In this document: positions 4,858-26,223 of the stretch, piece after piece
Layout of the letters: every line of letters starts with the position of its first letter
Numbering within the stretch: position 1 is the first letter of the stretch
Assembly (NCBI GenBank): GCA_000830275.1
Contig: CP010424.1
Span: forward strand, 390,001 to 422,000
DNA: 32,000 nucleotides
Direction: 5' to 3'
DNA from: an archaeon GW2011_AR10
GTDB taxonomy: Archaea; Iainarchaeota; Iainarchaeia; Iainarchaeales; GW2011-AR10
Notes under the pieces: model-generated
The model's database searches: none
The model's input: the letters and a program-made list of their open reading frames with translations, nothing else
Told to the model about the DNA's origin: nothing
Made by a program: the position numbers and the translations under genes

Positions 4858-5502
4858 ATGAAAATTCCAAAACAAATGGTTTTAGGAATTGCACTGTTTT
4901 TGCTTTTAAGCGGCTGCACGCAGCAACAGCCACCAGGCAACGGCAGTGAACCAGAAAACGGAGGCGCTTCCCCTGAAAAGTTCTGCAGCAACGCAACAGG
5001 ATACAAAACATCAGAGCTGGAACTTGATTCAGGAGAAAAACTAATTCAATTGGACCAAAACAGCAGTGAACTGCTCTGGAACAGGCTTGCAGAAAACCCG
5101 GCAGCGGTTTCAGAGTTAAGTGATTTGAGCTGCCTTGAAATCCTATCCCTCTCCTACACTGGTGTCAATGACTTAACCGCTTTAAGCGGTTTAACAAAAC
5201 TAAAATCGCTTTATTTGAAGGGAACCGCAATTGGCGACTTGCGAGGAATTTCCGGTTTTACTTCACTGAAGCAGCTATACCTATCTGACACAAACGTTTC
5301 AGATATTTCGATTGCGAAAAACTTCAAAGAGCTTGAAGTGCTAGACTTGTGGGGAACAAATGTTTCAGATGTGAGCAGCTTGCGCGGGCTGGACAAACTT
5401 AAAGAGGTTTACTTGCCTGAAACCAATGTTTCACAGCAGGACTGCGAGTCGCTGAAAGAACAGCTTCCTGAAACAGAAATAATCTGCCCAGAAGATATTT
5501 GA
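4858..5502 (+). CDS. leucine-rich-repeat lipoprotein/secreted protein
   Basis: Lipobox-like LLLSGC. There are at least 6 tandem units of about 22 aa of the form L-x-x-L-x-L-x-x-T-x-V-S-D-(I/L/V)-S-x-L. Confidence 0.75.
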   Translation: MKIPKQMVLGIALFLLLSGCTQQQPPGNGSEPENGGASPEKFCSNATGYKTSELELDSGEKLIQLDQNSSELLWNRLAENPAAVSELSDLSCLEILSLSYTGVNDLTALSGLTKLKSLYLKGTAIGDLRGISGFTSLKQLYLSDTNVSDISIAKNFKELEVLDLWGTNVSDVSSLRGLDKLKEVYLPETNVSQQDCESLKEQLPETEIICPEDI

Positions 5503-8238: not shown

Positions 8239-8493
8239 CTATTTTTCCCAATACTGTTTTCTGGGTTTTTCCTTGAATAGAAGGTTGAACAGCACCAGCT
8301 CTTGCTCGTTAAGAGGGCGGGACTTTGAGAGCTTGGTTAAGCGGGTTATTTCTGCTTCAATTTGTTTAATATCCATTAAGGGAATGTTTGCCTTCACCTT
8401 CTCAAACTGTTTTTCAGTCATTGGTTTAGGGTGAGATTTTTTCCTGAAAGGGTTAAGCTTACGAAAACTTAATGCCATTAAAATCTTTCTCAT
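8239..8493 (-). CDS. 84-aa basic hypothetical protein
   Basis: Its ATG overlaps the stop of the upstream KaiC-like gene (ATGA at 8490-8493). Confidence 0.5.
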   Translation of the reverse strand: MRKILMALSFRKLNPFRKKSHPKPMTEKQFEKVKANIPLMDIKQIEAEITRLTKLSKSRPLNEQELVLFNLLFKEKPRKQYWEK

Positions 8494-9119
8494 TTGATGC
8501 TAATAATTCTATCGCAGAACTGGCTGAGTTTCCTTAAGCTGGCGTCTGACTCAATTGAGTCAATCGCAACAAGGATGCCTTTCACTTTTGGAATTGCGCG
8601 AAGCTGCGTGGAAAGAGAGTGAACAAATTTTTCGACAAGCATCGGCTCATTGTAAATTGATAGGGTGGAAATGGAGTCAAGGATGACAAAGAAATCCTTC
8701 TCTTTCAGGGATGTAACCGCTTTCCTGAAGCCGATTGAGAGCGAGGAAAGGTCGTCAGGGGAGCCAACCAGTACAATGTTTGATGGAGCCTTCAAAGAAC
8801 CCCTTTCTTTTTCGCTTCTCGGCGAGCAGTCAACCACAATCATTTTAGAAGAATTAATGCCTTTTCCGGAAAGGTTTTTCGCCAGTTTTTCAAACGGCTT
8901 GTTGCCTGAAATGTAGATTCCGGAAAGCTTTCTTTCCACTAAAAGAATTCGCAGCAGCTCCTCATTGATTTTGGAAAAGTTTTCAGGCGAAATCAGCAAC
9001 AACACTAGGAACTCGTTGCCGAGACTTTCAAGCTCTCTGTGGAGCGACTGGCTAGACAGAAAATCTGGTTCAAGGTACTTTACTAATTCGTCAAAGTCCG
9101 GTTTGGTGCCTGCTGCCAT
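8490..9119 (-). CDS. KaiC/RecA-like fold protein lacking a Walker A motif
   Basis: The start is reset to ATG 9119 because the track extension to 9251 runs into the SRP RNA. An AAATTTAAAT box lies at 9141-9150. The overall pattern is KaiC-like (LVLLLIS..., GIYIS, IVVDC, FFVILDSIS), but the P-loop position reads ISPENFSK. Confidence 0.55.
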   Translation of the reverse strand: MAAGTKPDFDELVKYLEPDFLSSQSLHRELESLGNEFLVLLLISPENFSKINEELLRILLVERKLSGIYISGNKPFEKLAKNLSGKGINSSKMIVVDCSPRSEKERGSLKAPSNIVLVGSPDDLSSLSIGFRKAVTSLKEKDFFVILDSISTLSIYNEPMLVEKFVHSLSTQLRAIPKVKGILVAIDSIESDASLRKLSQFCDRIISIK

Positions 9120-9214
9120 AATAACAAAGTGGTTGCTGAAAAATTTAAATGAATCGGATAAAATGTGATGGTGGAAAGCCGGACAAAACAGGATACAAAA
9201 AGGAAGGTTTAAAA

Positions 9215-9488
9215 GTGTGGGCCGCCCGAAAGTGGAGTGCAGTTCAGCCAAAGGCTTGAGCCTTCTGGTTTCCTCGCTTCCGTTTTGCCTTAAGCACTGA
9301 TCAGTTAAGCTACCGTTGCTCCGGTCAAGGCCTAGCGGGATTAACTCAAAAAACCAATCTCAAGGGACAGAAGGTCACTGTCAGCCAAAAGAACCATTGA
9401 CTGAAAGGACCCGCCTCTCAGGCTTCAGCCCCGGCATAAAGCGGTTTTCCGGTGCAGGGAACCGCTGGCTCCCCGGCCTGGCCCACAA
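9215..9488 (-). ncRNA. signal recognition particle (7S/SRP) RNA, archaeal type
   Basis: The minus strand begins GTGGGCCAGGCCGGGGAGCCAGCGGTTCCCTGCACCGGAAAACCGCTTTATGCCGGGGCTGAAGCC. This matches the archaeal Alu-domain pattern as I remember it. S-domain-like elements are GGAGCAACGG...CTGATCAGTG...GGAAGCGAGGAAACC. The 3' end CGGGCGGCCCACAC pairs with the 5' end and is followed by TTTT. An ATATTTAAAT box lies at 9507-9516. Confidence 0.85.
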
Positions 9489-13126: not shown

Positions 13127-15154
13127 ATGCCTGCCAAACCAAAATTTTTGGATTCACTAGTTTTACTCGCTGTTTTTGCACTGGTTTTACTGGTTTTTTT
13201 CAGCGGGTGCATTAAGCCAGTAGACGGCAACGGCGGAAATGGTGATGACAATACGGTTGAGAATCCGACAGACGAAAATGAGTTTGTGGAGCAGCCGGGG
13301 CCAGAACCAACGCCTGCAACCTTGCAGCAGCAGATAAACGCCTGCCTTACATTTGAAAGCGAGGGTCTGGCTGATTCGTGCCTTGTGGATGTTGGGCTTT
13401 CACTCATGGATTCAACGCCGTGCGAGTATGTAAGGGTTCTGCCGAAAGACAGCTGCTACCAGGAAATTGCAATCAACGCGAAGAACGTTGCTGATTGCGA
13501 CAAAATAGTGGAAAGCGACCTTGCAAACCAGTGCTATGAGTCTTTAGGCATTGAGTTAAGGGATTACGTGGCCTGCTCTAAAATAGTGGGGGATGAAGCA
13601 AAAAAAGACAATTGTTTGAAGGAAGTTGCCTCTGCTGTGAACGATTTTGAGGTATGCAGCCGCATTTCGGTTGCAAGCCTAAAGGATGAGTGCCTGACGC
13701 AGGTGGCAACTGCAACAGGCAACACTAATGCCTGTGAAGGTGTTTCCGGCGCATTTGTTCAAGGAACCTATTTAAGGGATGACTGCTACCTGTCTGCTGC
13801 AGGGGAAGCTGTTTCAATTGAGTTATGCAATAAGCTGTTAAGCGAGGAACGAAGCATTGAGTGCTTTGAGCTTGTAATTTCAGATGAGATAGAGTTTGAC
13901 ACCTGCAGTTCGATTTCATTGCAGGAGAAGAAGGATTCCTGCATTAAGGCATACGCGCTGAACACAAAAGAGTTCAGTGCATGCAGCGAAATTTCCGCTC
14001 AGGAGCTCCAGCAGGAATGCTATGAAAGCATTGCAAGGACAAGCTCTGCAACTGAAGAGCTCTGCGGATTAGTGGAAGATGACCTTATTGTTTCACAGTG
14101 CTTTACGCAGATTGCACTGAATGAACTGGATGTTGAGGTTTGCAATAAAATCAACTTGCGCCGGGACAAAAATGACTGCGTTGCAAAGGTTGCGGTTACA
14201 TCAAAGGACTCTGACAAATGTCTCTTTATTGTAGCTGACCCTGGCAAAAGAAACGAGTGCATTTCAGACGTGGCAGTTGCGAATTTAAGCACCGGGCAGT
14301 GCAAGGAAATAGAGAACTCCGGCCAGTACACGATTCAATGTTATAGTGGAATAGCGGTTGCACTTAACACTTTAAGCGTTTGTGATTCAATCGAGGTGAA
14401 AAAGTATTCAACTGAAAAATATGAGAGCACGCCGACTTGCTACAAGCAGTTTGCTGTTGCAACTGAAGATGCCAATGTATGCGAGCTTATTGACGAGAAC
14501 GCATTATACTATGAATGCAAGAACGATGTAAGGGTTGTAGTTGAATGCATTGATGGGGATGGAAGCTGCCAAGGCTTTTGCTGGTACGCAATTGACAAGG
14601 ACTGCGAGAAGCCTGGTTATTGTGGTTTAGCCGAGGAGTGCGATGACGGCCTTGTAGGAACAGAAAACAAGTGCGAGGAAAACGCATGCGTGTTTGTCGC
14701 GATTACCCAGTGCAGTAATGGAGATGACTTCTGCCCTGATATTTGCTCAATTGAGGATGACACGGACTGCGTAGTAAGCGAGCCAGGCCAAGGACTAGTA
14801 ATTGACTCGGTTTCATTCGACCCCGCCGCACCTGTTTATCCTTTCACTGAAGTGCTTTCAATGCAGTTGAGGAACGCTTCAACCAATACGATTACTGAAT
14901 TCCATTATGATGTATCAATTGTCGGGCCAAATTACAAGGCAACAGGAAGCGATAGTATTTCTCTTGGCAGGGGTGAAACCTATGAGCTTCGCCTTGAGAA
15001 CTTTTTGCCTTCATTTAACTGCACTAACGGTTATGATGGAGGAGGAAATTACACTATAAAGGCGCAGATTGATTTGGATGGCTTTGGCACTGGTGCAGGG
15101 CTGAGCGACGAATGGGAAGGCTCATTCGCTTTTTCCGGAGACTGCCCCACATAA
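13127..15154 (+). CDS. secreted/anchored cysteine-repeat surface protein with C-terminal beta-rich (CARDB-like) domain
   Basis: CATTAAATAC box at 13094-13103 and an N-terminal TM/signal sequence. There are about 12 or more units of the form C-x2-(I/L)-x6-10-C-(Y/L/F)-x2-(V/I)-A-x5-9. A Cys-dense block follows, then a beta-rich tail. Confidence 0.8.
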   Translation: MPAKPKFLDSLVLLAVFALVLLVFFSGCIKPVDGNGGNGDDNTVENPTDENEFVEQPGPEPTPATLQQQINACLTFESEGLADSCLVDVGLSLMDSTPCEYVRVLPKDSCYQEIAINAKNVADCDKIVESDLANQCYESLGIELRDYVACSKIVGDEAKKDNCLKEVASAVNDFEVCSRISVASLKDECLTQVATATGNTNACEGVSGAFVQGTYLRDDCYLSAAGEAVSIELCNKLLSEERSIECFELVISDEIEFDTCSSISLQEKKDSCIKAYALNTKEFSACSEISAQELQQECYESIARTSSATEELCGLVEDDLIVSQCFTQIALNELDVEVCNKINLRRDKNDCVAKVAVTSKDSDKCLFIVADPGKRNECISDVAVANLSTGQCKEIENSGQYTIQCYSGIAVALNTLSVCDSIEVKKYSTEKYESTPTCYKQFAVATEDANVCELIDENALYYECKNDVRVVVECIDGDGSCQGFCWYAIDKDCEKPGYCGLAEECDDGLVGTENKCEENACVFVAITQCSNGDDFCPDICSIEDDTDCVVSEPGQGLVIDSVSFDPAAPVYPFTEVLSMQLRNASTNTITEFHYDVSIVGPNYKATGSDSISLGRGETYELRLENFLPSFNCTNGYDGGGNYTIKAQIDLDGFGTGAGLSDEWEGSFAFSGDCPT

Positions 15155-16992: not shown

Positions 16993-17030
16993 GGGGAATA
17001 ATAACGTGAATTAAACGATTCCCTTGTAAG

Positions 17031-17999
17031 CTATTTCAGCCTCCTGTACTTAACCTGTTTCAGGAATGCCTTATAGCAGAACTCTACAAAGAATTTTTCA
17101 TTCCCTGATTCAACCGACTTTATCAGATCTTTGAAGTATTCAGAAGTGTCCTTTGAAATGTTTAGTATTGGATAGCTGGCATCCTGAAGAATCTTGTTGA
17201 ACAGCAAACGGCACATCCTCTTGTTCCCGTCCTTGAAAGGGTGTATAAGGTGGATTTTTAAGTGAACCAAGGCGGCAAGCTCCAAGGGATGAACGTCTTT
17301 ATTTCTTTCAAACCATTCAAAGAACTTTTCAAGCTCGTTTTCAACATCCTTTGGGGCAGGAGGCCTGTACTTAATTTCCTCGCTTTTAAGAGTAAGGGGA
17401 TTAAATCTAGCAATTATCCTTTGGTCATCTCTAAGCTGACCGGGACTAATTCTTTCAAAAGAAGACATCACTATGCTGTGTAATTTGAGAACATCACTCT
17501 TGTTTATTCTTATTTTTGGCAGGTAATTGAAACCGGTAATCATTGAACTCGAAATAACTACCTTATTGTCAAAAGTATGCTCTTTTTTCCTTTTGTCAAT
17601 AATATCAAAAGCCGTTTCAACATCAGAATAATCAACATCAACTCCTTCAGTGCGGAGTGTCGTATACACAAAATGCAGAACCTCATTTTTTTCATATTCC
17701 TGCTTCTGTTTTTTACTTAGTTTTTCAAAACGAGATAAAAAATTTTCCTTTACTTTTTCAGCCTCAACAAGTTCCTTCCTTGAAAGAAAAGAAAACTTGA
17801 ACTTGCTTAAAGTTTTGTCATAGTATTTACCTAATGCCTTTTTTTTCAGTTCCTTTTTCTTTTTCTTCAATTCAGATTCAGAAGGCTTTTCCTTTCCCAG
17901 ATATTCATAAACCTTCCTAACCTTATCCCCCACTCTGATAGTGAACTCCAAGTAGTAATATTCTTTGCCCTTAACTTTTCTCTTGACAACACTAACCAT
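17031..17999 (-). CDS. Fic/DOC family protein
   Basis: HPFKDGNKRMCR matches the Fic core HxFx(D/E)GNGRxxR with Gly replaced by Lys. The N-terminus KGKEYYYLEFTIRVGDKVRKVYEYLG resembles that of many archaeal Fic proteins. Confidence 0.85.
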   Translation of the reverse strand: MVSVVKRKVKGKEYYYLEFTIRVGDKVRKVYEYLGKEKPSESELKKKKKELKKKALGKYYDKTLSKFKFSFLSRKELVEAEKVKENFLSRFEKLSKKQKQEYEKNEVLHFVYTTLRTEGVDVDYSDVETAFDIIDKRKKEHTFDNKVVISSSMITGFNYLPKIRINKSDVLKLHSIVMSSFERISPGQLRDDQRIIARFNPLTLKSEEIKYRPPAPKDVENELEKFFEWFERNKDVHPLELAALVHLKIHLIHPFKDGNKRMCRLLFNKILQDASYPILNISKDTSEYFKDLIKSVESGNEKFFVEFCYKAFLKQVKYRRLK

Positions 18000-18001
18000 G
18001 A

Positions 18002-18182
18002 GTAGTTATAACTACAAAGTATTTAAATAATGTAGTTATAACTTTTACAACTACAAATTCTGTAAAAAATGTAGTTATAACTGAACAATTGGCTTTTATC
18101 GCGTTCTCAATGGGATTGCGCGGGAATGAAAGTACTGGTCAATAAGCTTTTATATACTTTTATATAGTTATACGGTATAACT
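18002..18182. promoter_or_regulatory. divergent Fic/vapBC control region with four AGTTATA-type palindromes
   Basis: GTAGTTATAACTAC at 18002-18015 abuts the Fic ATG. GTAGTTATAACT occurs at 18032-18043 and 18071-18082. AGTTATAC-G-GTATAACT lies at 18166-18182. A TATTTAAATA box lies at 18020-18029. CTTTTATATA occurs twice in tandem at 18147-18166. Confidence 0.55.
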
Positions 18183-18194
18183 ATTGGTGTTAAA

Positions 18195-18428
18195 ATGATT
18201 GAATACGAAGTCCAATTGAAAAAATGGGGAAACTCGGTAGGCCTTATAGTGCCAAAAGAGGCCTTGGAAAAAGAGTCACTCAAACCCAGGCAAATGGTAA
18301 GAGCAATAATAACGCCGATAAAGACACTCAAGGTAAAGGATATTTTTGGAAAACTAAGACTCAAAAAGCCGACAGCACAAATAATGGCCGAAATAGACAG
18401 GGATTTTGAAGAAAAATTCGGAAAGTGA
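18195..18428 (+). CDS. vapB: AbrB/SpoVT-type antitoxin (VapB-like)
   Basis: LKKWGNSVGLIVPKEAL is the typical SpoVT-AbrB swapped-hairpin motif. It lies directly upstream of a PIN gene. Confidence 0.75.
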   Translation: MIEYEVQLKKWGNSVGLIVPKEALEKESLKPRQMVRAIITPIKTLKVKDIFGKLRLKKPTAQIMAEIDRDFEEKFGK

Positions 18429-18434
18429 AGCCGA

Positions 18435-18797
18435 GTGAAGTACTTCTTTGACACCTACGCCCTATTTGAAATAATAGGTAGAAACAAAAATTACGAAAAG
18501 TTTTCAAACGAGGAAATAGCTACTTCCACGTTGAATCTTGGAGAACTATACTACGGACTCCTGAAAAACCACGGCAAAAAAATAGCAATACACTGGTTCA
18601 ACAAATTCAAGAACTCCACAATACCAATAAACGAAAACACCATAAGACGCGGAATGGACTTCAAATTTGAAAACAGGCAAAAAAAATTCTCTTTTGTAGA
18701 TTGCGTGGGCTATGCAGCGGCCAGAAACCACAGCCTAATGTTCCTAACCGGCGACAACGAATTCGGGGGAATTCCGGGGGTAGAATTCGTAAAATAG
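18435..18797 (+). CDS. vapC: PIN-domain toxin (VapC-like)
   Basis: Acidic PIN residues are in context: N-terminal FFDTYAL and C-terminal FLTGDNEF. GTG start at 18435. Confidence 0.8.
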   Translation: MKYFFDTYALFEIIGRNKNYEKFSNEEIATSTLNLGELYYGLLKNHGKKIAIHWFNKFKNSTIPINENTIRRGMDFKFENRQKKFSFVDCVGYAAARNHSLMFLTGDNEFGGIPGVEFVK

Positions 18798-18877
18798 CCA
18801 CGCCCCAAAAAAATTAACGGGATTATTGTCTAGTTCTCAATAGGATTGAATTGGAATAATTATCTAAAGCTGATAAA

Positions 18878-19291
18878 ATGCCACACCCGATATTTCATTT
18901 CATTGTATCTGCGGTTATTGCCGCTTTTCTCTGGCCGTCGATTGGATGGTTTGCTTTGCTTGCATTCGCGGGAGGCTTTTTGATAGATTTGGACCACTTT
19001 TTTGTTTACATTGCCAGGGGAAAAGGCCTTGATTTCATTAAAGCTTACTACTTTTTCCTCAACCGGGAAGAAGAATGGGTAGATGAATTGTTTGTCTTCC
19101 ACAACATTGAACTGGTTTTTCTTGCAACCATTATTCCGCTTTATTTTCCTTTCCTGTTAGCCTGCTCTGCTGCTTACATTGCCCACCAAATAATGGACCT
19201 AATAAATGAGAGGTTCATTGAGAGAATTACCCCAAAACAAATCTCAATAACTTTGTTTTTGCTTAAAGGCGGTTCTGCAAAAAAGCAGTAG
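18878..19291 (+). CDS. small membrane protein, possibly DUF457/YdjM-like metal-dependent hydrolase
   Basis: Has 3-4 TM helices with His/Asp motifs at helix ends: HPIFH, LIDLDHF, FHN and AHQIMD. The assignment is tentative. Confidence 0.45.
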   Translation: MPHPIFHFIVSAVIAAFLWPSIGWFALLAFAGGFLIDLDHFFVYIARGKGLDFIKAYYFFLNREEEWVDELFVFHNIELVFLATIIPLYFPFLLACSAAYIAHQIMDLINERFIERITPKQISITLFLLKGGSAKKQ

Positions 19292-19371
19292 AATATAGCA
19301 AAATGCTTTTGTATTTGAGCAAAAATTGCATTTTGCAACTAGCAAACAGCAAATTAAAGTTGTTTGCTATA

Positions 19372-19384
19372 CGTTTAAATACTT
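19372..19384 (+). promoter_or_regulatory. TATA-box-like element CGTTTAAATACTT
   Basis: Lies about 25-50 nt upstream of the candidate starts at 19407 and 19428. It is preceded by inverted repeats AGCAAACA...TGTTTGCT (19341-19368) and TTGCA-TTT-TGCAA (19326-19338). Confidence 0.45.
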
Positions 19385-19427
19385 CTTTTGAGTTTAATTT
19401 ATTGTAGTGGTTTTTGTGCCTAAAAAC

Positions 19428-20396
19428 ATGTCTTTTAAGAGGATTGAAACCAGGCCGCTAAAAAGGTTTCCGCCTGCTGTTGACAGGAAGTCAATTGTTA
19501 ACACTGCTAGGATAGTGGAGAGACTGCGAGCTGCAGGAGAAAACATGCTGGCAAAAGAGCTTGAAGAAATGAAGTACATGAATCGGGTTAGGGGCAGGTT
19601 TATGAACAGGCTTGTTCATGATCTCTTAAGCGGCAGAATTAATAGGAAAGAATTCAGGCAAAAGATGGGGTTTGTTGACAGGAGGATTCAAGATAAGACC
19701 GAAAGGGTTACATCAGTTGTTAAAAAAAGGGCTTTCCTTTTGAGGCCCAGGACCAAAAGACTTGCGTCATTGGCAATGACTGACCCTTTTTTTAAATACA
19801 TCTACAGCCATAATGCTTTCTCAGAGCTTGTAAAAAGAAAGTTTACTTCTTGGAGGAAGAGTGGAGTGCAAACAATAGTTTTTTTTGACGTGGATTTGGT
19901 AAAGCAAACAAACGATGCAATCGGCAGTCACCTTGAGGGCGGAACCGCTCTTTTGACTGCTTACGCTGAGGCCGTGAAAGAGGTATGTGACAAATACAAT
20001 GGAATTGGAGCGCGTTATGGTACGGATGAGTTCACTCTCCACTTTTATATGCCAAAAGAAGAAGTTACAGCAATTGTTGACGAACTTAAGGGGCTCGCCA
20101 AAGAAAAAATCTTGAGTGGAACAGTTGAAAATCCATTCACTGGTGACCCTCTCTCAATAGTAAAATTGCGAGACGCAATGCTAAGAAAAGAAATTCCAGG
20201 AACTGTCACTAGCGCAATTATACAGGTAGACTTTGACTTTCAACATAAAAAGTTTCAGGAACCACAGCAAATTTATGCCAATGTCATGAATAATGCGAGC
20301 AAAAGTGTAATGCAACTAAAAAAAGGCGATAGAAGGGGAACATCAATAGTTGTTGAGGATAACAAAATCATTGAAAAGAACCTGCAGAAAAAATAG
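19428..20396 (+). CDS. GGDEF-like (GTDEF) palm-domain protein with basic helical N-terminal region
   Basis: By eye, FFDVDLVKQTNDAIGSH and ARYGTDEFTLHF align with D-x-D-x-F-K-x-x-N-D-x-x-G-H and R-Y-G-G-(D/E)-E-F of diguanylate cyclases. YSHNAF aligns with the N-R-R-x-F position. ATG 19428 is preferred; GTG 19407 is an alternative. Confidence 0.6.
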   Translation: MSFKRIETRPLKRFPPAVDRKSIVNTARIVERLRAAGENMLAKELEEMKYMNRVRGRFMNRLVHDLLSGRINRKEFRQKMGFVDRRIQDKTERVTSVVKKRAFLLRPRTKRLASLAMTDPFFKYIYSHNAFSELVKRKFTSWRKSGVQTIVFFDVDLVKQTNDAIGSHLEGGTALLTAYAEAVKEVCDKYNGIGARYGTDEFTLHFYMPKEEVTAIVDELKGLAKEKILSGTVENPFTGDPLSIVKLRDAMLRKEIPGTVTSAIIQVDFDFQHKKFQEPQQIYANVMNNASKSVMQLKKGDRRGTSIVVEDNKIIEKNLQKK

Positions 20397-20415
20397 GTTC
20401 CAATTATTTTTATTT

Positions 20416-21048
20416 ATGAAACGAAATCATTGGGGTCAAAAAAGCAAGAAAAAGGTTTCAGAAAAGAAGCCTTATGAAAAAAGGCCCACTCAGGAAAAAG
20501 TTAATCGGCTTCTCGCCGGACTGCAGGAAAAATTTGGTCAGGGGATTGATTTTCAGGGAAACCATGCTTTCATGGCATTAATCCAGCAGGTGGCCAGAAC
20601 AAATGGATATTTTAATGAGCATTTGGGAAAATCCGCGTTTCTGGCTGAGAAAAATTTCCCAGAACTCAGGAAACCAGAAACTCGTGTAATAACAACTTCA
20701 ATAATTGGAAAAAAGGCAGAAAAGGCAGCCCGGCAGATTATAGGCGAATTGGCAACAAAACCAACTGGATTCATTCATTTTTTCAGAGAGCTGGATAGAG
20801 CAAAATCTCCAACCGAATTTCAAATTTTAAAATCATCTGAAGATTATGCTCGCTATAGCAATGTTCTACATGATACCGGGATTTGGAGGAAAGGCCAAGG
20901 AATAGACAAAGTTCTTCTTAAAGAAGTGCTCCCGATATTGGAAGCGGAAACAACAAGAAGAGCTCTGAGAAGAGAAGAACAAAAGGCAAAAAATGCCGAC
21001 CAACAACAAGCTACGAGAGAAAGGAAGCAAAATCCTTTTCGTTGGTGA
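20416..21048 (+). CDS. 210-aa basic hypothetical protein
   Basis: ATG at 20416 is in frame with track ORF 20350. It lies 20 nt after the previous stop and is co-oriented. I recognise no domain. Confidence 0.5.
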   Translation: MKRNHWGQKSKKKVSEKKPYEKRPTQEKVNRLLAGLQEKFGQGIDFQGNHAFMALIQQVARTNGYFNEHLGKSAFLAEKNFPELRKPETRVITTSIIGKKAEKAARQIIGELATKPTGFIHFFRELDRAKSPTEFQILKSSEDYARYSNVLHDTGIWRKGQGIDKVLLKEVLPILEAETTRRALRREEQKAKNADQQQATRERKQNPFRW

Positions 21049-21172
21049 AATAATTCAGCATATGCCAAAACACGATTCACTTTAACTTAAATCTACTGAC
21101 ACCATGGAAAAGAAGCAAAAACAGCGCACAAAAAGTTTAAGTAGTTGAAAAAACTTAATATAAGTGGTTAAA

Positions 21173-21565
21173 ATGAGGGCAAAAAAAGCTAGTCAAAGGG
21201 GCCTCACATCGGAGCGGCGGAAGGCACCATACGGGCACCCTGAAAAAAGAGCTAATTGGAAGAACAGGGTTGGCATTCCATTAGATTCTCTCCCAAAGGA
21301 AGCTGTGCGAGTAATACCATTCTATGGAGCAGCGGTGATTACTCCTGAGAATCCAGTGAGAAAAAGACTTGAAATATTCAATAGACGGTTGATTCCACTG
21401 CTGAAGGCTAGAAATAGGCCCGATGAACTCGAATATTACTGGAACAAGGAAACAGGAAGCAATTATATACTGCTCCGCGGAAACTTGACTGGAAAAAAAG
21501 TATTCCAAGTCACTAACAAAAGTGTTATTGACGTCCTTGAAAAAATGAGGACAAAAAAACTATAA
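21173..21565 (+). CDS. 130-aa basic hypothetical protein
   Basis: ATG at 21173 (GTG 21164 is an alternative). No recognisable domain. A T-tract at 21607-21613 follows. Confidence 0.45.
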   Translation: MRAKKASQRGLTSERRKAPYGHPEKRANWKNRVGIPLDSLPKEAVRVIPFYGAAVITPENPVRKRLEIFNRRLIPLLKARNRPDELEYYWNKETGSNYILLRGNLTGKKVFQVTNKSVIDVLEKMRTKKL

Positions 21566-21747
21566 GCCCTGGAAAAAATAACTACTATTAAATGTTAAAA
21601 CTTTCTATTTTTTGCGAAAGAACTACCGTCCTTCCGAAGAAGGGGCATGTACAAGGTGCCGGCTGACTTTTCAGCCGAATGCGAGCCTGAGAAACGAGCC
21701 GGTACTGCTTTCAGCAGTACGCTTTACCGCCGCAAGCAGGCGGCGAA

Positions 21748-21820
21748 TGGACCGACCGGGAATCGCACCCGGGACCTCTACCTTGCGAAGGTAGCGCTCT
21801 ACTAACTGAGCTATCGGCCC
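21748..21820 (-). tRNA. tRNA-Ala(CGC)
   Basis: The minus strand reads GGGCCGA TA GCTC AGTTAGTA GAGC G CTACC TTCGCAA GGTAG AGGTC CCGGG TGCGATT CCCGG TCGGTCC A. The G3:U70 alanine identity pair is present. Confidence 0.9.
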
Positions 21821-21886
21821 TTTATTTTTGCGAGGCTCACAGAGCCGAGTCAAGTCCAGTGAAACTGGACTGATGCTACCGCCGCG

Positions 21887-21932
21887 CATTTACGGCGCTG
21901 AGCTATCGGTATTTGCGGCGCTAAGCTATCGG
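21887..21932. repeat. 23-nt tandem duplication containing tRNA-Ala 5'-end-like sequence
   Basis: The two units are CATTTACGGCGCTGAGCTATCGG and TATTTGCGGCGCTAAGCTATCGG. Their CT(G/A)AGCTATCGG core equals positions 21806-21817 of the tRNA gene. Confidence 0.6.
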
Positions 21933-22033
21933 CCCGTGAAACTATTTGATGATGGTAAGTAATATATTAGTTATATTGCTGGGTTTTTGTCGTGATTGAA
22001 AAGTATTTAAACTATTGAACGCAATGTTCTTGT

Positions 22034-22771
22034 ATGCGTTTTTTAAAGCTAAAGAGAAGGAGAATCCCAGATGAGAACCCAAAAAGAAGAAGAGAAAGGG
22101 AACAATACTGGGCAAAAAAGTATGCCGCGTTTAATGATTTTGTATACGGTTACCACACTGAAAGCTCTTTGCACAGAAAACTCATCAGACTTTTTGGACC
22201 TTGGAAGTTAAAAGGAAAAACTGTTCTAGATGTGGGTTGCGGAGTTGGCAGCTTAAGTTTAATGCTTGCTTCAAAGGTCGGCAAAGGAAAAGTAATTGCG
22301 TGTGACTCGCAGAAAGTGGCAATTGATATTTGCATGGAAAAAATTGAATTAATGAAGTCATCAAAATCTATCGAAGAATTTAGGGAAAGGCTGACTCAGG
22401 AAATGCCTGAAAAGCTTTGGGGAAGAGATGACTTGCTTGCTTTTAGGGAAAAGGAAAACGTGGAAAAAAATGTTGCTTTTTTTGAGCAGCCAGTAGAAAT
22501 GTTGCCAAACGCGAATGCTCACCTTACTATTTCAAGGTATGTTCTGAACACTTATACGCGCTGGAGCACAAGGACTGATGCATTTTTGTCTCCAAATATT
22601 GGCCCCTTTATTAGGGCACTTGAAAGTCATACAAGGAAAGGTGGCAGAATTGTTATTATTGACAGAAAAAACCACTTTGATAATTATTCTTTAGGCCAGT
22701 TAAAACAAATGGGTTATAAGCGAGTATCGTTGGGAAATGAAATTATTTTCTGGAAAAAGAAACGCTTTTAA
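22034..22771 (+). CDS. class I SAM-dependent methyltransferase
   Basis: GTATTTAAAC box at 22003-12. Motif I is VLDVGCGVGSLS, followed by VIACD. The substrate is unknown. Confidence 0.8.
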   Translation: MRFLKLKRRRIPDENPKRRREREQYWAKKYAAFNDFVYGYHTESSLHRKLIRLFGPWKLKGKTVLDVGCGVGSLSLMLASKVGKGKVIACDSQKVAIDICMEKIELMKSSKSIEEFRERLTQEMPEKLWGRDDLLAFREKENVEKNVAFFEQPVEMLPNANAHLTISRYVLNTYTRWSTRTDAFLSPNIGPFIRALESHTRKGGRIVIIDRKNHFDNYSLGQLKQMGYKRVSLGNEIIFWKKKRF

Positions 22772-22793
22772 AGCTGGGAAGTGAAAGTATTGT

Positions 22794-23273
22794 ATGGCTT
22801 TTTTGAGGAAACCGGTCGGCAAAAGAAGGGGCTTGAATATTTCAAAGAAACAAGCCCGCAAAAAAAGGAAGCTGAAGAGAAAAGTTATTGCCGGTGCTGT
22901 AAGTGCAGCATTGCTTGCCGGCATCGGGATTCCAACGTACAAGGTGGAGCGATATAATTTTTTCAACAGGGGAGTGAATGCTTTGGCTGCACAGCACGGC
23001 ATAAGCGAAGAGCACATAATCAAGGAAAGGACAAAGGTTTGGGTTGATATGGGGCTTTCCAATCTGCCGGGAGAGTATTGGCCTGAGAAAGCGACAATAA
23101 TAAAGGGTTACTGGAAGGCTCCTGAAGCCGAAAAAAAGCTTTTGGAAAGGTTAAGGAATGGGATTAAGAGAGGCGATTTTGAGAAGGGCGGAAAACCGAA
23201 AGGGAAAGATAAAAAAATTTATATTAAGAGAAATAAAGGGAACCGTGGTTCAGGCAGAACTGCTTTTTCATAA
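22794..23273 (+). CDS. membrane-anchored basic protein, unknown function
   Basis: A Lys/Arg-rich N-terminus is followed by one TM helix (VIAGAVSAALLAGIGI), a globular part and a Lys-rich tail. Confidence 0.5.
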   Translation: MAFLRKPVGKRRGLNISKKQARKKRKLKRKVIAGAVSAALLAGIGIPTYKVERYNFFNRGVNALAAQHGISEEHIIKERTKVWVDMGLSNLPGEYWPEKATIIKGYWKAPEAEKKLLERLRNGIKRGDFEKGGKPKGKDKKIYIKRNKGNRGSGRTAFS

Positions 23274-23367: not shown

Positions 23368-26223
23368 ATGGCCAAAAACGTTGATTCTCCCGCAAAAAAA
23401 ATGAATAGCCGTGTAAGCAGGGAAAAGACAGAAAAGGACACTGACATTTTTGACGAAATCCTTGAGGAAAAGGCAGAAAAGGAAAAAGACAAGAAAGAAG
23501 ACGAAGAAGAGAAAGAGGATGTAACATTTGATGAGGAAGATGAAGGGCAGAGAACAGATGATAAAAGCGAATATAGCGGGAAAGAAGGCAATGAGGAAAA
23601 GCAGGCAGATGAAGAAGAAAGCAGCGAAGACACGGATGACTTTGAGTATTCGCTTGAAAGAGAGGAAGACTCAGTAGAGCACGGTGTAAAGGAAAAGGAG
23701 CTTGACGAGGTTCCTCTAAAAGAACTAGGCAAGAATAGGGAAGAAATTAAGGACACTATCATTCACAAGGCGTCTCTGCTTTCATTAAAGGATAAGGGCC
23801 CAGCAGAAACTGGATTGAAGCTGAATTTTCTCTCTGACCCGGCTACTGGAAACGTTTTCATTGGGAGGAAAAAAGCAGTCCACAAAAAGTACGGCTATGA
23901 GGGAGCGCTCCACGTAGGCAGGGTAAACGAGCAGGAGTTCAAAGACAAAGACATTTACCTTGACAGCCTTAACCCGCACGTTGTATTTGTGTGCGGGGCA
24001 CGTGGAAGCGGAAAATCGTACGTAATGGGGGTAATAGCTGAAGAGATTGCCCTGAAGAACAAGAATGTTGGCACAATTGTCATTGACCCAATCGGGGTTT
24101 TTTGGAGCATGCGTTTTCCAAACAGAGAGGAAAGGGAACTGGAAAAAATCAAGGAGTGGAAACTGAATCCTCTTGGCCTGAAGAACATTCGGGTGTTTGT
24201 TCCTGCTGGAATCAGGGGTCAAGTTCCGAAAACAACTTTTGATGCCGGCTTTTCAATGCAGCCTTCACTGCTGAGCTCGGAGGATTGGGCTCTGACATTC
24301 AAAATTGACAGGTTCAGTGTAACCGGCTTGCTGCTGGAAAAAGTCCTTAAAAAGGTTGAGTCTGGCTATAAGAGCCTTGAAGACAAAAAAATTCCGGCTA
24401 AGGGAAGGAACTACTCGCTTGACGACATAGTAATCTGCCTCGAATCCGATGCTGAGTTAAACTCCAGGGAGAAAGGCTATAAGCAGGACTCAATAAGGGC
24501 GTTGTCAAGCAGGTTTGAGGCAGCGAAGGCTTGGGGAATATTCGATGAAAAAGGAACGCCTTTGAGTGACCTTTCAAGGGAAGGCCAGATGACAATTCTT
24601 GACACGAGTTTTCTGGATGACACTGTAACTGCTCTTGTTATTGGAGTGCTTGCAAGGAGGATTCTTGCTGCAAGAAAGATTTCGACAAGAAAGGAGGCTG
24701 CTTCTAGGTTCAAGACTTTGGATGTAGATCAGCTGCTTGAGCTGGAGATTCCTCCAACATGGCTTTTCATTGATGAAGCGCATACTCTTATTCCAAGCGG
24801 TAACGAAAAAACCCCTGCTAGTTCTGCGCTGGTGGAGTATGTCAAGCAGGGAAGGAGGCCTGGCTGCAGCCTGGTTTTTGCAACCCAGCAGCCTAGTGCA
24901 ATTGACACAAAGGTTTTGAGCCAGCTCGACATAATCATGACTCACAAGCTTGTTTTTGACGATGACGTAAAAGCTGTTTTCAAGAGAACACCAACTATTA
25001 TTCCAGCTGCATTCAAGAGGAAGAGCTTCATTAAGACTCTGCCGGTTGGAGTTGCATTAACTGGAGATAGAAGCGAGGAAACCAGCAGGGCATTCATTAT
25101 GAGCATCAGGCCAAGGCTGAGCCAGCACGAGGGAAGGGACGCTGAAACTCTTGGAATGAGTGAAACTGTTTCAGCTGAACAGCTTGAAAATCTTATAGTG
25201 GAGGTTGTCCACAGAGACCTGCTTAAGGAAGGGGAAATCGAAATCGAGAAAATAAAGAAGGTTATAGAGACGCTTAATGCAAAATACAATGGGAACGCGC
25301 ACCTTTCAGCAATACTGCAGGGCTTGAGGGAGAAAGGATTTATTGTAGGCCAGAAAACTGTTATGCTTGAAGGAGCCAAGGGCGACAGGAAAATAGCCAA
25401 GGAAATAATCAAGGCTGAAAGCGGTGAAGAAGAGGAAACAGGAGAGGAAGGTGAAGCACTAAAAGGAGAACCCCTGCAGGATGTGGAAACAACTGAGCTT
25501 TTGGCTTTGCCGCAGAGAATTCCTGAAAGCAGGGCAAAGGAAATTGTGAACGAAATCAGGAAGAAGAGGCTGTTAGGGCTGCTTGGAGGCGAGGAAGTAG
25601 TAAGAGACACAGCACTGCGCTATCACACTGTCTGGAAAGTGAACTACGACATTGTTAGCACAAAAAACGAATTCCTTTCACGGCAGTGCTTCATTAGTTC
25701 CTCAAGCGGTGAGTTCCTGCACTTTTCAATGGGAAAGTTTGTTGAATCCAAAGGCTTGAACGAGTTCTTTGAACTAGGGGAAGACGAACTCTCAGTGCTT
25801 AAAGCCCTGATGAAAAACCAGTTGAGTGCAGAGGAACTGATTGGCATAACAGAATTTGGAGAGGGAAAAGTGCTGAGAATCCTGAAAAAGCTGGGTGAAC
25901 GAGGCTTAGTTGGAGTAGCTGTTGAACAAAAAACAGGGAAACGGATTTACTGGCTGAAGCAGCAGTTTGATTTGCCGCCAAGTGAAAGGCACGAGTTGCT
26001 TGGCTCAATAAATTATCTTCCATTTGTGAGGGCTGACGCGATAAGCAAGGAGCACGAGTTGTTCGGCAAAGAAAAAATTCCTGAACTGCTGCAGAAAATG
26101 TGGAAGAATGTCATAGTGAAAAGCATTGAGGAGATTTACAGGCCCGTGTGGCACTTTAAGCTGGAACTTGACGGCAAGGAAAGAACTGTTCTGGTTGACG
26201 GCGTAACAGGAAAGGTCATTTGA
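23368..26223 (+). CDS. HerA/FtsK-superfamily (DUF87-like) ATPase with acidic N-terminal region and C-terminal winged-helix
   Basis: AGGTGG lies 6 nt upstream of the ATG. Walker A is GARGSGKS (23995-24018). Walker B is WLFIDEAH (D-E at 24772-24777). VKQGRRPGCSLVFATQQPSAIDTKVLSQLDIIMTHKL matches the HerA-type arginine-finger/sensor region. The C-terminal LSVLKALMKNQLSAEELIGITEFGEGKVLRILKKLGERGLV is wHTH-like. Confidence 0.8.
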   Translation: MAKNVDSPAKKMNSRVSREKTEKDTDIFDEILEEKAEKEKDKKEDEEEKEDVTFDEEDEGQRTDDKSEYSGKEGNEEKQADEEESSEDTDDFEYSLEREEDSVEHGVKEKELDEVPLKELGKNREEIKDTIIHKASLLSLKDKGPAETGLKLNFLSDPATGNVFIGRKKAVHKKYGYEGALHVGRVNEQEFKDKDIYLDSLNPHVVFVCGARGSGKSYVMGVIAEEIALKNKNVGTIVIDPIGVFWSMRFPNREERELEKIKEWKLNPLGLKNIRVFVPAGIRGQVPKTTFDAGFSMQPSLLSSEDWALTFKIDRFSVTGLLLEKVLKKVESGYKSLEDKKIPAKGRNYSLDDIVICLESDAELNSREKGYKQDSIRALSSRFEAAKAWGIFDEKGTPLSDLSREGQMTILDTSFLDDTVTALVIGVLARRILAARKISTRKEAASRFKTLDVDQLLELEIPPTWLFIDEAHTLIPSGNEKTPASSALVEYVKQGRRPGCSLVFATQQPSAIDTKVLSQLDIIMTHKLVFDDDVKAVFKRTPTIIPAAFKRKSFIKTLPVGVALTGDRSEETSRAFIMSIRPRLSQHEGRDAETLGMSETVSAEQLENLIVEVVHRDLLKEGEIEIEKIKKVIETLNAKYNGNAHLSAILQGLREKGFIVGQKTVMLEGAKGDRKIAKEIIKAESGEEEETGEEGEALKGEPLQDVETTELLALPQRIPESRAKEIVNEIRKKRLLGLLGGEEVVRDTALRYHTVWKVNYDIVSTKNEFLSRQCFISSSSGEFLHFSMGKFVESKGLNEFFELGEDELSVLKALMKNQLSAEELIGITEFGEGKVLRILKKLGERGLVGVAVEQKTGKRIYWLKQQFDLPPSERHELLGSINYLPFVRADAISKEHELFGKEKIPELLQKMWKNVIVKSIEEIYRPVWHFKLELDGKERTVLVDGVTGKVI

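Follow-up and report, generated by a model that had tools for sequence, protein, structure and literature searches.

The 32,000-nucleotide stretch of the archaeon GW2011_AR10 studied here (contig CP010424.1, positions 390,001 to 422,000 of the forward strand; in the following, the window) raises the question whether or not an archaeon encodes a GGDEF-type cyclase of its own and, if so, whether this enzyme acts together with the two genes that follow it. A first-pass annotation, made from the letters alone, had pointed towards yes for both parts: it read the gene ending at 20396 as a GGDEF-like palm-domain protein and the two proteins downstream (p2 and p3) as its candidate partners in a nucleotide-signalling module. 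We find that the product of the cyclase gene is a GGDEF-type protein proper and not a Cas10-like or class III palm. The cyclase-p2-p3 layout reflects how genes are ordered locally in a single species-level population; as a module it is not conserved.

The cyclase gene is an uninterrupted open reading frame (ORF) on the + strand that runs from 19407 (GTG) or 19428 (ATG) to a stop at 20396. Residue numbers of its protein count from the ATG at 19428. The gene and the two parts of its product are:

19407..20396, + strand: stalk-GGDEF protein gene; 329 amino acids from GTG 19407, 326 from GTG 19416 (NCBI), 322 from ATG 19428
19485..19775, + strand: basic N-terminal stalk; helices at residues 20-67 and 73-116 in the AlphaFold model
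19779..20357, + strand: GGDEF (palm) catalytic domain, residues ~118-310, as placed by Pfam, the family profile, hhalign and Foldseek

Domain identity and fold

The Pfam GGDEF model PF00990 matches the protein above threshold (27.4 bits vs. a gathering cut-off of 23.8, E 3.2e-6). A phmmer search of PDB sequences returns diguanylate cyclases only, with WspR as the best match (E 3.5e-6). Here, DVD..K..ND is aligned to DVDyFKsYND of WspR and RYGTDEF to RYGGEEF. When the 14-member family profile is compared with the diguanylate cyclase 3ign, residues 1-173 of 177 are aligned (E 2.1e-14), and a profile-profile comparison by hhalign against 15 canonical GGDEF proteins yields a probability of 99.8 (E 2.5e-29). 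That is, the core motifs of diguanylate cyclases that the first-pass annotation had picked out by eye hold in formal alignment. The same applies to VTSAIIQV, which it had likened to the T-x-S-x-G strand; in the alignment, the canonical Ser and Gly of this strand correspond to S262 and I264, respectively.

The AlphaFold2 model consists of two long N-terminal helices followed by an alpha/beta domain. Among its Foldseek matches in the PDB, ranks 1-27 are all GGDEF-domain structures, with diguanylate cyclases at the head (SiaD at 7.8e-6, then Dcsbis, WspR and DgcZ) and GcbC after them, and the target-normalised template modelling score (TM-score) is 0.60-0.68 for isolated GGDEF domains. The top match, the stalk-GGDEF enzyme SiaD (7e6g), extends over ~306 columns. 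The first class III adenylyl cyclase in the list has an E of 6.6e-3 and a Cas10 subunit one of 2.9e-2, i.e., diguanylate cyclases are far ahead of both. Pfam, family profile, hhalign and Foldseek thus agree on a GGDEF/palm-domain protein in a real archaeal genome, as had been claimed.

Cas10 and mCpol palms as well as class III adenylyl/guanylyl cyclases have the same palm (RRM-like) catalytic fold and stand lower in the Foldseek list. In contrast to them, the archaeal signature is G-x-DEF and not GGDD, no CRISPR or CARF genes lie nearby, and PADLOC yields no match. A Cas10, mCpol or class III cyclase identity is ruled out by the Foldseek ranking together with the motif.

With regard to the N-terminal part, the basic helical region described by the first-pass annotation is recovered, with a length of ~125 residues and two predicted long helices. 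Residues 1-125 have an isoelectric point (pI) of 11.5 and a net charge of +20. Conservation of the stalk goes beyond helical character to the sequence itself, with E44, K90, R93, K100 and L104 nearly invariant, and the NCBIfam SiaD model aligns to residues 37-217. By analogy, we presume the stalk to be a dimerisation or regulatory module.

Active site and base-specificity site

The following sites of the catalytic domain are needed for its interpretation:

19887..19895, + strand: D154-V-D156, metal-binding DxD; both Asp invariant; aligned with the DxD of WspR
19911..19913, + strand: N162, counterpart of the base/ribose-contacting Asn (PleD N335, GacA N339); invariant
19938..19946, + strand: G171-G172-T173, at the site of the canonical G-D with the guanine-specifying Asp; one-residue insertion, no Asp
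20019..20033, + strand: G198-T-D200-E201-F202 signature; R-Y-G198-T-D-E-F202 aligns with RYGGEEF
20319..20321, + strand: K298 in the C-terminal helix; invariant; aligned with the Lys of the canonical AD-ALY-AK-GRN motif

Within the 14 aligned family members (identity down to 25%), D154, D156, N162, G171, G172, G198, D200, E201 and K298 are invariant. The metal-binding DxD and the D-E residues are aligned with their canonical counterparts, and K159-Q-T-N162-D is aligned with the FKxxND of WspR. The base/ribose-contacting role of the Asn is known from PleD N335 and GacA N339 (PMC6456294). Given the invariance of the metal, Asn, D-E and Lys positions, binding of a nucleotide and Mg2+ would be expected to be retained, and the family has probably retained catalysis as well.

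The signature reads G[G/S/T]DE[F/Y] across the family. Distant members retain GGDEF, while the window protein has G-T-D-E-F in place of an intact G-G-[D/E]-E-F, and GTDEF or GSDEF is found in its subclade. The Thr at the second Gly, noted in the first reading of the sequence, is confirmed by alignment. The inhibitory RxxD site (I-site), which precedes the signature by five residues, is absent: the window protein has K189-Y-N-G192, and nearly all members have K-x-x-G.

The guanine-specifying Asp (counterpart of PleD D344) is absent from every family member, while the Asn N162 is kept. The two Gly at this site never vary, and in the core family they are followed by T, A or S. The position of the canonical Asp corresponds to G172 by phmmer and hhalign and to T173 by hmmsearch (family profile vs. 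PDB) and MAFFT L-INS-i. The first-pass annotation had seen the guanine-contacting Asp replaced by Gly. The loss of the Asp holds for the whole family, and the replacing residue is Gly in two of the four methods and Thr in the other two.

The specificity position is known to matter for base choice. Hallberg et al. 2019 (PMC6456294) showed for GacA that Ser at this position lets ATP in besides GTP and that the enzyme uses GTP alone once Asp is put back. In the same study, GGDE[F/Y] was the only signature among natural GGDEFs with Ser or Thr at the specificity site. The archaeal family has Asp and never Glu at the signature centre (D200), which fits this rule and is no proof of an analogy to Hypr GGDEFs. 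Judged from these residues, the product of the enzyme may not be, or not only be, cyclic di-GMP (c-di-GMP).

Compared to known enzymes, the archaeal protein shares with SiaD- and WspR-type diguanylate cyclases (PDB 7e6g, 3i5c, 3bre) the fold and a helical stalk leading straight into the GGDEF domain. DxD, Asn, [D/E]EF and the C-terminal Lys all align, and these enzymes are the best Foldseek, phmmer and NCBIfam matches. It differs from them in having no REC domain and no known activator, in a basic two-helix stalk that is conserved only in archaea, and in the missing guanine Asp, the Thr at the second Gly and the missing RxxD I-site; identity in the structural alignments is 13-19%. Hypr GGDEFs (GacA/GSU1658, Bd0367), which make 3',3'-cGAMP (cyclic GMP-AMP), likewise have a small residue instead of Asp at the position facing the Watson-Crick edge. 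At the GacA S348 position, the archaeal residue is Thr, Ser or Ala in two of four alignments and Gly in the other two, and the motif centre is always Asp, as in natural Ser/Thr variants (PMC6456294). Unlike Hypr enzymes, the archaeal family has an extra Gly at the site, such that the equivalent residue may be Gly, neither a REC domain nor an I-site is present, and the organisms are archaea.

Family and lineage

The family was defined by an exhaustive profile search of 1.84 billion representatives and a word-indexed search of 5.8 billion proteins. The latter yields four cyclase clusters only (100, 91, 61 and 40% identity). In the former, 9 proteins fall below E 1e-30, and the full-length members number about a dozen; all of them combine a basic two-helix stalk with a GGDEF domain C-terminal to it. 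Beyond this core, a continuum of ordinary GGDEF proteins follows (3950 below E 1e-3).

Named family members come from Ca. Iainarchaeum andersonii SCGC AAA011-E11, the 'archaeon' isolates P6-4/P6-8, an uncultured archaeon and Diapherotrites metagenome-assembled genomes (MAGs). Wherever the source names an organism, the family is archaeal only, mostly from Diapherotrites/Iainarchaeota, which are tiny archaea of groundwater, with the AR10-like Diapherotrites population at one end of its range and Ca. Iainarchaeum andersonii at the other. The NCBI entry of the identical protein is named 'MAG TPA: diguanylate cyclase [Candidatus Diapherotrites archaeon]'. The next-best matches are short basic stalk-GGDEF proteins from Diapherotrites or 'archaeon' MAGs. 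Since both the closest relatives and the next-best matches are archaeal, there is no close bacterial donor. The window also carries an archaeal signal recognition particle (SRP) RNA (9215-9488, - strand, 123.6 bits). Bacterial contamination or recent transfer is ruled out by this RNA on the contig and by the archaeal closest relatives. Judging from archaeal context, family range and nearest relatives, the gene looks native to its DPANN lineage, i.e., the locus presents an archaeal GGDEF family and not a contaminant.

Stalk-GGDEF proteins of the wider DPANN set (P0018, P0037, P0055, P0071, P0116, P0151 and the GG-type P0017, P0019, P0021) share the basic N-terminus, the stalk and the C-terminal GGDEF domain. 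They score 47-72 bits against the family profile, compared to at least 160 for full-length core members. Many have the canonical GD and GGEE and look like ordinary diguanylate cyclases, while others have GN or GH. The guanine-specifying position thus varies across this set (P0017-P0151): D together with GGEE, or N, H and GG-x.

The first-pass annotation had also leaned on published censuses that find GGDEF proteins rare in archaea, an argument that is out of date. Galperin et al. 2018 (PMC5847659) name Methanocella arvoryzae as the sole archaeal case detected at that time and flagged others as possible contamination. Braun et al. 2021 (PMC8646023) list more than 300 archaeal GGDEF BLAST hits, many of them in Asgard and DPANN archaea, and NCBI itself names the protein a diguanylate cyclase. 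The same study found no c-di-GMP in Haloferax or Sulfolobus, and a 2023 review (PMC10249747) still calls diguanylate cyclases almost exclusively bacterial.

Gene neighbourhood

The proposed module comprises the cyclase gene and two genes downstream of it, which are listed here together with their neighbouring features:

20416..21048, + strand: p2; 210 amino acids as in public annotations; basic; starts 19 nucleotides past the cyclase stop
21136..21143, + strand: TATA-like TTTAAGTA, 28 nucleotides before the p3 start codon
21164..21565, + strand: p3; 133 amino acids (130 from ATG 21173); basic
21748..21820, - strand: tRNA-Ala(CGC); also downstream of p3 in L001

That both ORFs are co-oriented, basic and without recognisable domains was rightly described: nothing usable is found for either in Pfam, NCBIfam, PADLOC, PHROGs or PDB sequence searches. 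The sole sub-threshold matches are a uS19/S15e likeness of p3 (E 0.04) and Pfam noise for p2. A structure model of p3 has a predicted local distance difference test (pLDDT) score of 50.6 from 2 sequences; its best Foldseek match (E 0.28) was discarded as meaningless. With pI values of 10.1 and 10.65, p2 and p3 are not marked out by their basicity, because 13 of the 19 other ORFs in the window also have a pI of at least 9. PADLOC has no matching model for the cyclase, p2 or p3, and PHROGs matches the cyclase alone, to families of unknown function.

Next, we consider how p2 and p3 are expressed and distributed. No TATA box is found at the usual distance upstream of p2, which together with the 19-nucleotide gap makes its co-transcription with the cyclase probable. 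The word-indexed search of 5.8 billion proteins finds homologues of p2 nowhere but in its own 90% cluster. In the close relative L015, the 91%-identical cyclase is directly followed by a p3 homologue and p2 is absent, while in L001, which carries the 61% relative, a major facilitator superfamily (MFS) transporter gene lies in p2's position between the cyclase and the p3 homologue.

For p3, its own TATA-like box 28 nucleotides upstream points to a transcription unit of its own. The search of 5.8 billion proteins yields two p3 clusters. The identical protein is found in the 1.24-Mb genome of archaeon GW2011_AR10 and in many groundwater metagenome contigs, and homologues (57-58% identity) are found solely in the close relatives L001 and L015. 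A further contig, L010, has p3 beside a phosphoglycerate kinase gene, and the cyclase is not present nearby. This contig is 100% identical to the window from 21128 on (p3 promoter, p3, tRNA-Ala, methyltransferase) and has phosphoglycerate kinase and ATP synthase subunit D genes instead upstream of that point. Position 21128, just 5' of the p3 TATA box, is thus a rearrangement breakpoint or an assembly chimera. It is the tRNA-Ala and the methyltransferase gene, and not the cyclase, that p3 travels with.

Both p2 and p3 are absent from the four distant family loci (L016-L019). Where the flanks of these loci could be read, the neighbours are entirely different, namely endonuclease III, GTP cyclohydrolase I, an Fe-S assembly protein and an Mrp ATPase (L017 and L018) or large secreted proteins (L019). 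The three-gene neighbourhood is therefore not conserved in L001, L015, L010 or L016-L019, and the cyclase has no conserved gene partner. We infer that p2 is a strain-specific passenger transcribed with the cyclase and p3 an independent neighbour.

The comparison with L015 also reveals an uneven distribution of differences. Otherwise 99.1% identical over 9.8 kb, the two sequences have 54 of their 92 mismatches in the 250-nucleotide bins from 19750 to the cyclase stop, i.e., in the 3' two-thirds of the cyclase gene. The gene shows 30 non-synonymous and 19 synonymous codon changes, from codon 95 on. Past the cyclase, L015 is without p2 and its p3 is 58% identical. The pattern suggests that 19750-21565 of the window is a recombination or hypervariable tract whose start lies within the catalytic domain.

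Proposed mechanism and alternatives

The reading that we favour, with moderate confidence, is that of a stand-alone, stalk-dimerised GGDEF cyclase from a Diapherotrites-specific subfamily; its base specificity would be relaxed or changed, and its synthesis of a cyclic dinucleotide would not be subject to feedback inhibition. The enzyme would be cytoplasmic and soluble, with the basic two-helix stalk and the GGDEF domain as its only parts. By analogy with SiaD and WspR, the stalk would bring two GGDEF domains together. Each domain would bind one nucleoside triphosphate (NTP) with Mg2+ through D154, D200 and E201, and the paired domains would form the cyclic dinucleotide free of inhibition by their product. 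The base choice is probably relaxed, because Gly or Thr/Ala/Ser stands in place of the Asp and the motif has an invariant Asp at its centre, a pairing reported for Hypr GGDEFs. The product could then be c-di-GMP, cGAMP, cyclic di-AMP (c-di-AMP) or a mixture. Since the stalk is conserved in sequence, it is probably also where a regulator binds. A further-reaching reading, which we consider unlikely, is that this subfamily, which has lost the guanine-specifying Asp and the feedback site, makes a cyclic dinucleotide different from c-di-GMP in the manner of Hypr enzymes, for example cGAMP or c-di-AMP or a mixture.

A number of observations weigh against the favoured reading. The PF00990 match spans profile positions 9-95 of 161, i.e., the first half of the model, and TIGR00254 scores 35.1 bits, just under its cut-off of 37.4. 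The AlphaFold2 model of the cyclase is of moderate quality (pLDDT 70.3) and was built from only four input sequences. At the specificity site, the four alignment methods are split two against two, so the Hypr analogy rests on one register. The second signature Gly is Thr in the window protein, and the GSDEF protein SesB is reported to be without cyclase activity (as cited in PMC13571940); by analogy, the subclade with S or T in its signature could be inactive. Within the 32-kb window, neither a cyclic-dinucleotide receptor nor a phosphodiesterase is seen. Finally, no experimental work was found in the literature on GTDEF and on characterised archaeal GGDEF enzymes.

The main rival reading is a degenerate GGDEF domain that binds nucleotides without cyclising them and serves as an NTP or cyclic-dinucleotide sensor or as a scaffold via its stalk, like PdeA GEDEF or GdpP/YybT. 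The GTDEF or GSDEF motif of the window's subclade, the lost guanine-reading Asp and the codon changes between strains in the catalytic domain (30 non-synonymous vs. 19 synonymous) all fit such a protein. So do precedents: besides SesB, for which no cyclase activity is detectable according to the citing paper, the GEDEF domain of PdeA is cited there as only binding GTP (PMC13571940), and ATPase activity is described for the GGDEF domain of YybT (Rao et al. 2010, as listed in PMC8646023). However, the metal and catalytic residues all stay invariant after the change of G to S or T, across sequences that are 30-44% identical, and distant family members retain the full GGDEF motif. Furthermore, the protein has no second enzymatic domain that a sensor could regulate, and the I-site of receptor-type GGDEFs is absent. 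We therefore rate a degenerate domain as somewhat unlikely. An ordinary diguanylate cyclase that makes c-di-GMP only, as in the NCBI annotation, would be in line with the best sequence and structure matches, all of which are diguanylate cyclases, with the nucleotide-contacting Asn being kept and with the canonical GD and GGEE of related DPANN proteins. This reading is quite unlikely given that the GTP-specificity Asp is absent family-wide, a residue that decides between c-di-GMP and cGAMP in GacA (PMC6456294). It is also at odds with c-di-GMP being undetected in any archaeon examined (PMC8646023, PMC10249747) and with EAL, HD-GYP and PilZ domains not being found in the 32-kb window.

The module suggested by the first-pass annotation amounts to an operon for second-messenger defence or signalling, with the two basic proteins p2 and p3 activated by what the cyclase makes. 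Indeed, the three genes are co-oriented, p2 starts 19 nucleotides past the cyclase stop, and p3 adjoins or is near the cyclase in three related lineages. In addition, the tract is locally hypervariable between strains, as is often the case in defence islands, and Fic and VapBC-like genes as well as a HerA-like ATPase are encoded nearby. The synteny data nevertheless largely refute this operon already, and we regard it as highly improbable: p2 is confined to its own cluster and missing from L015 and L001, p3 is preceded by a promoter of its own and is found in L010 without the cyclase, and the four distant family loci contain neither gene. Neither p2 nor p3 has a PADLOC or PHROG match or a recognisable nucleotide-binding or effector domain, and the cyclase has no PADLOC match. 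Compared to the cyclic-nucleotide defence operons known from cyclic-oligonucleotide-based antiphage signalling systems (CBASS), type III CRISPR or mCpol-like systems, the locus lacks their conserved adjacency of cyclase and effector. It reveals no new kind of system, and the proposed effector partners fail.

What the locus does offer is a family in which catalytic residues are under constraint while the base-specificity site is altered. With ~320 amino acids and presumably soluble, the protein is a tractable target for the question whether archaea use GGDEF-made dinucleotides and which ones. Should the product indeed be one other than c-di-GMP, this would make it the first second-messenger pathway based on GGDEF to be shown in Archaea. 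The spread of D/N/H/G/T among the DPANN stalk-GGDEF proteins would in that case reflect a diversification of nucleotide signals in small symbiotic cells.

Start codon and promoter

The region upstream of the cyclase gene contains two features:

19292..19373, + strand: intergenic region with two perfect 9-nucleotide inverted repeats, 5' of the TATA box
19374..19381, + strand: TATA-box-like TTTAAATA, 33 nucleotides 5' of GTG 19407

A bacterial promoter/terminator scan is inapplicable to archaea and reports sites no more numerous than in shuffled sequence. In its place, promoter evidence was taken from a check of the spacing between TATA box and start codon. Boxes of the TTTAAATA type recur 28-33 nucleotides ahead of start codons (g844, g13127, Fic and GlmS; starts 844, 13127, 17999, 29931 and others), which suggests mostly leaderless mRNAs and makes the spacing usable for choosing starts. 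For the cyclase, GTG 19407 is the likelier start, since the TATA-like box at 19374-19381 stands 33 nucleotides before it. If this is the start, the spacing suggests a leaderless cyclase mRNA. An A/T-rich TAAATA is retained 5' of the cyclase orthologues in L001 and L019.

The first repeat is formed by GCAAAATGC/GCATTTTGC (19298-19306 and 19328-19336) and the second by TAGCAAACA/TGTTTGCTA (19340-19348 and 19361-19369). The first-pass annotation had described a promoter flanked by inverted repeats. The TATA-like box and the two perfect repeats are indeed present, but both repeats lie 5' of the box and do not flank it. They are possibly an operator or a terminator of the upstream gene. Their number is weakly above chance, i.e., two or more such pairs occur in 6.5% of dinucleotide shuffles and in 10 of 560 window tiles, and the repeats are not conserved in the 61% relative L001. 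Being marginal against chance and without conservation in L001, the repeats were given no weight as an operator.

Remaining genes of the window

The cyclase lies in a block of lower GC content (17000-23000; 0.36-0.39 compared to 0.42-0.48 in most of the remaining window), which may be a variable genomic island. The block holds a Fic gene, an AbrB-like/PIN pair (VapBC-type), a 137-amino-acid protein with hydrophobic segments, the cyclase, p2, p3, tRNA-Ala(CGC) and the methyltransferase gene. The Fic-domain gene (17031-17999, - strand) has its TATA box between palindromes of the GTAGTTATAACTAC type (~18000-18070), an arrangement that suggests autoregulation.

Just beyond the block, 23368-26223 (+ strand) encodes a 951-amino-acid HerA/DUF87-type ATPase that matches the HerA and mad8 models of PADLOC. 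Its N-terminal ~110 residues are highly acidic; on the C-terminal side it has a winged helix of the TrmB-like type, and its end is weakly PepSY-like. The window also encodes FtsZ, GMP synthase, GlmS and phosphoglucomutase, and it contains two tRNAs. A KaiC/DUF7504-like ORF is listed at 8490-9251 (- strand). Since its TTG start would place ~37 nucleotides of the ORF within the 3' end of the SRP RNA gene, the true start is probably further downstream. A very acidic protein of 675 amino acids (pI 4.08) is encoded at 13127-15154 (+ strand); it is unmatched in Pfam and PADLOC and is found at the same position in L015. A further acidic protein, encoded at 4858-5502 (+ strand), is a leucine-rich-repeat protein of 214 amino acids (LRR_4, E 6e-23).

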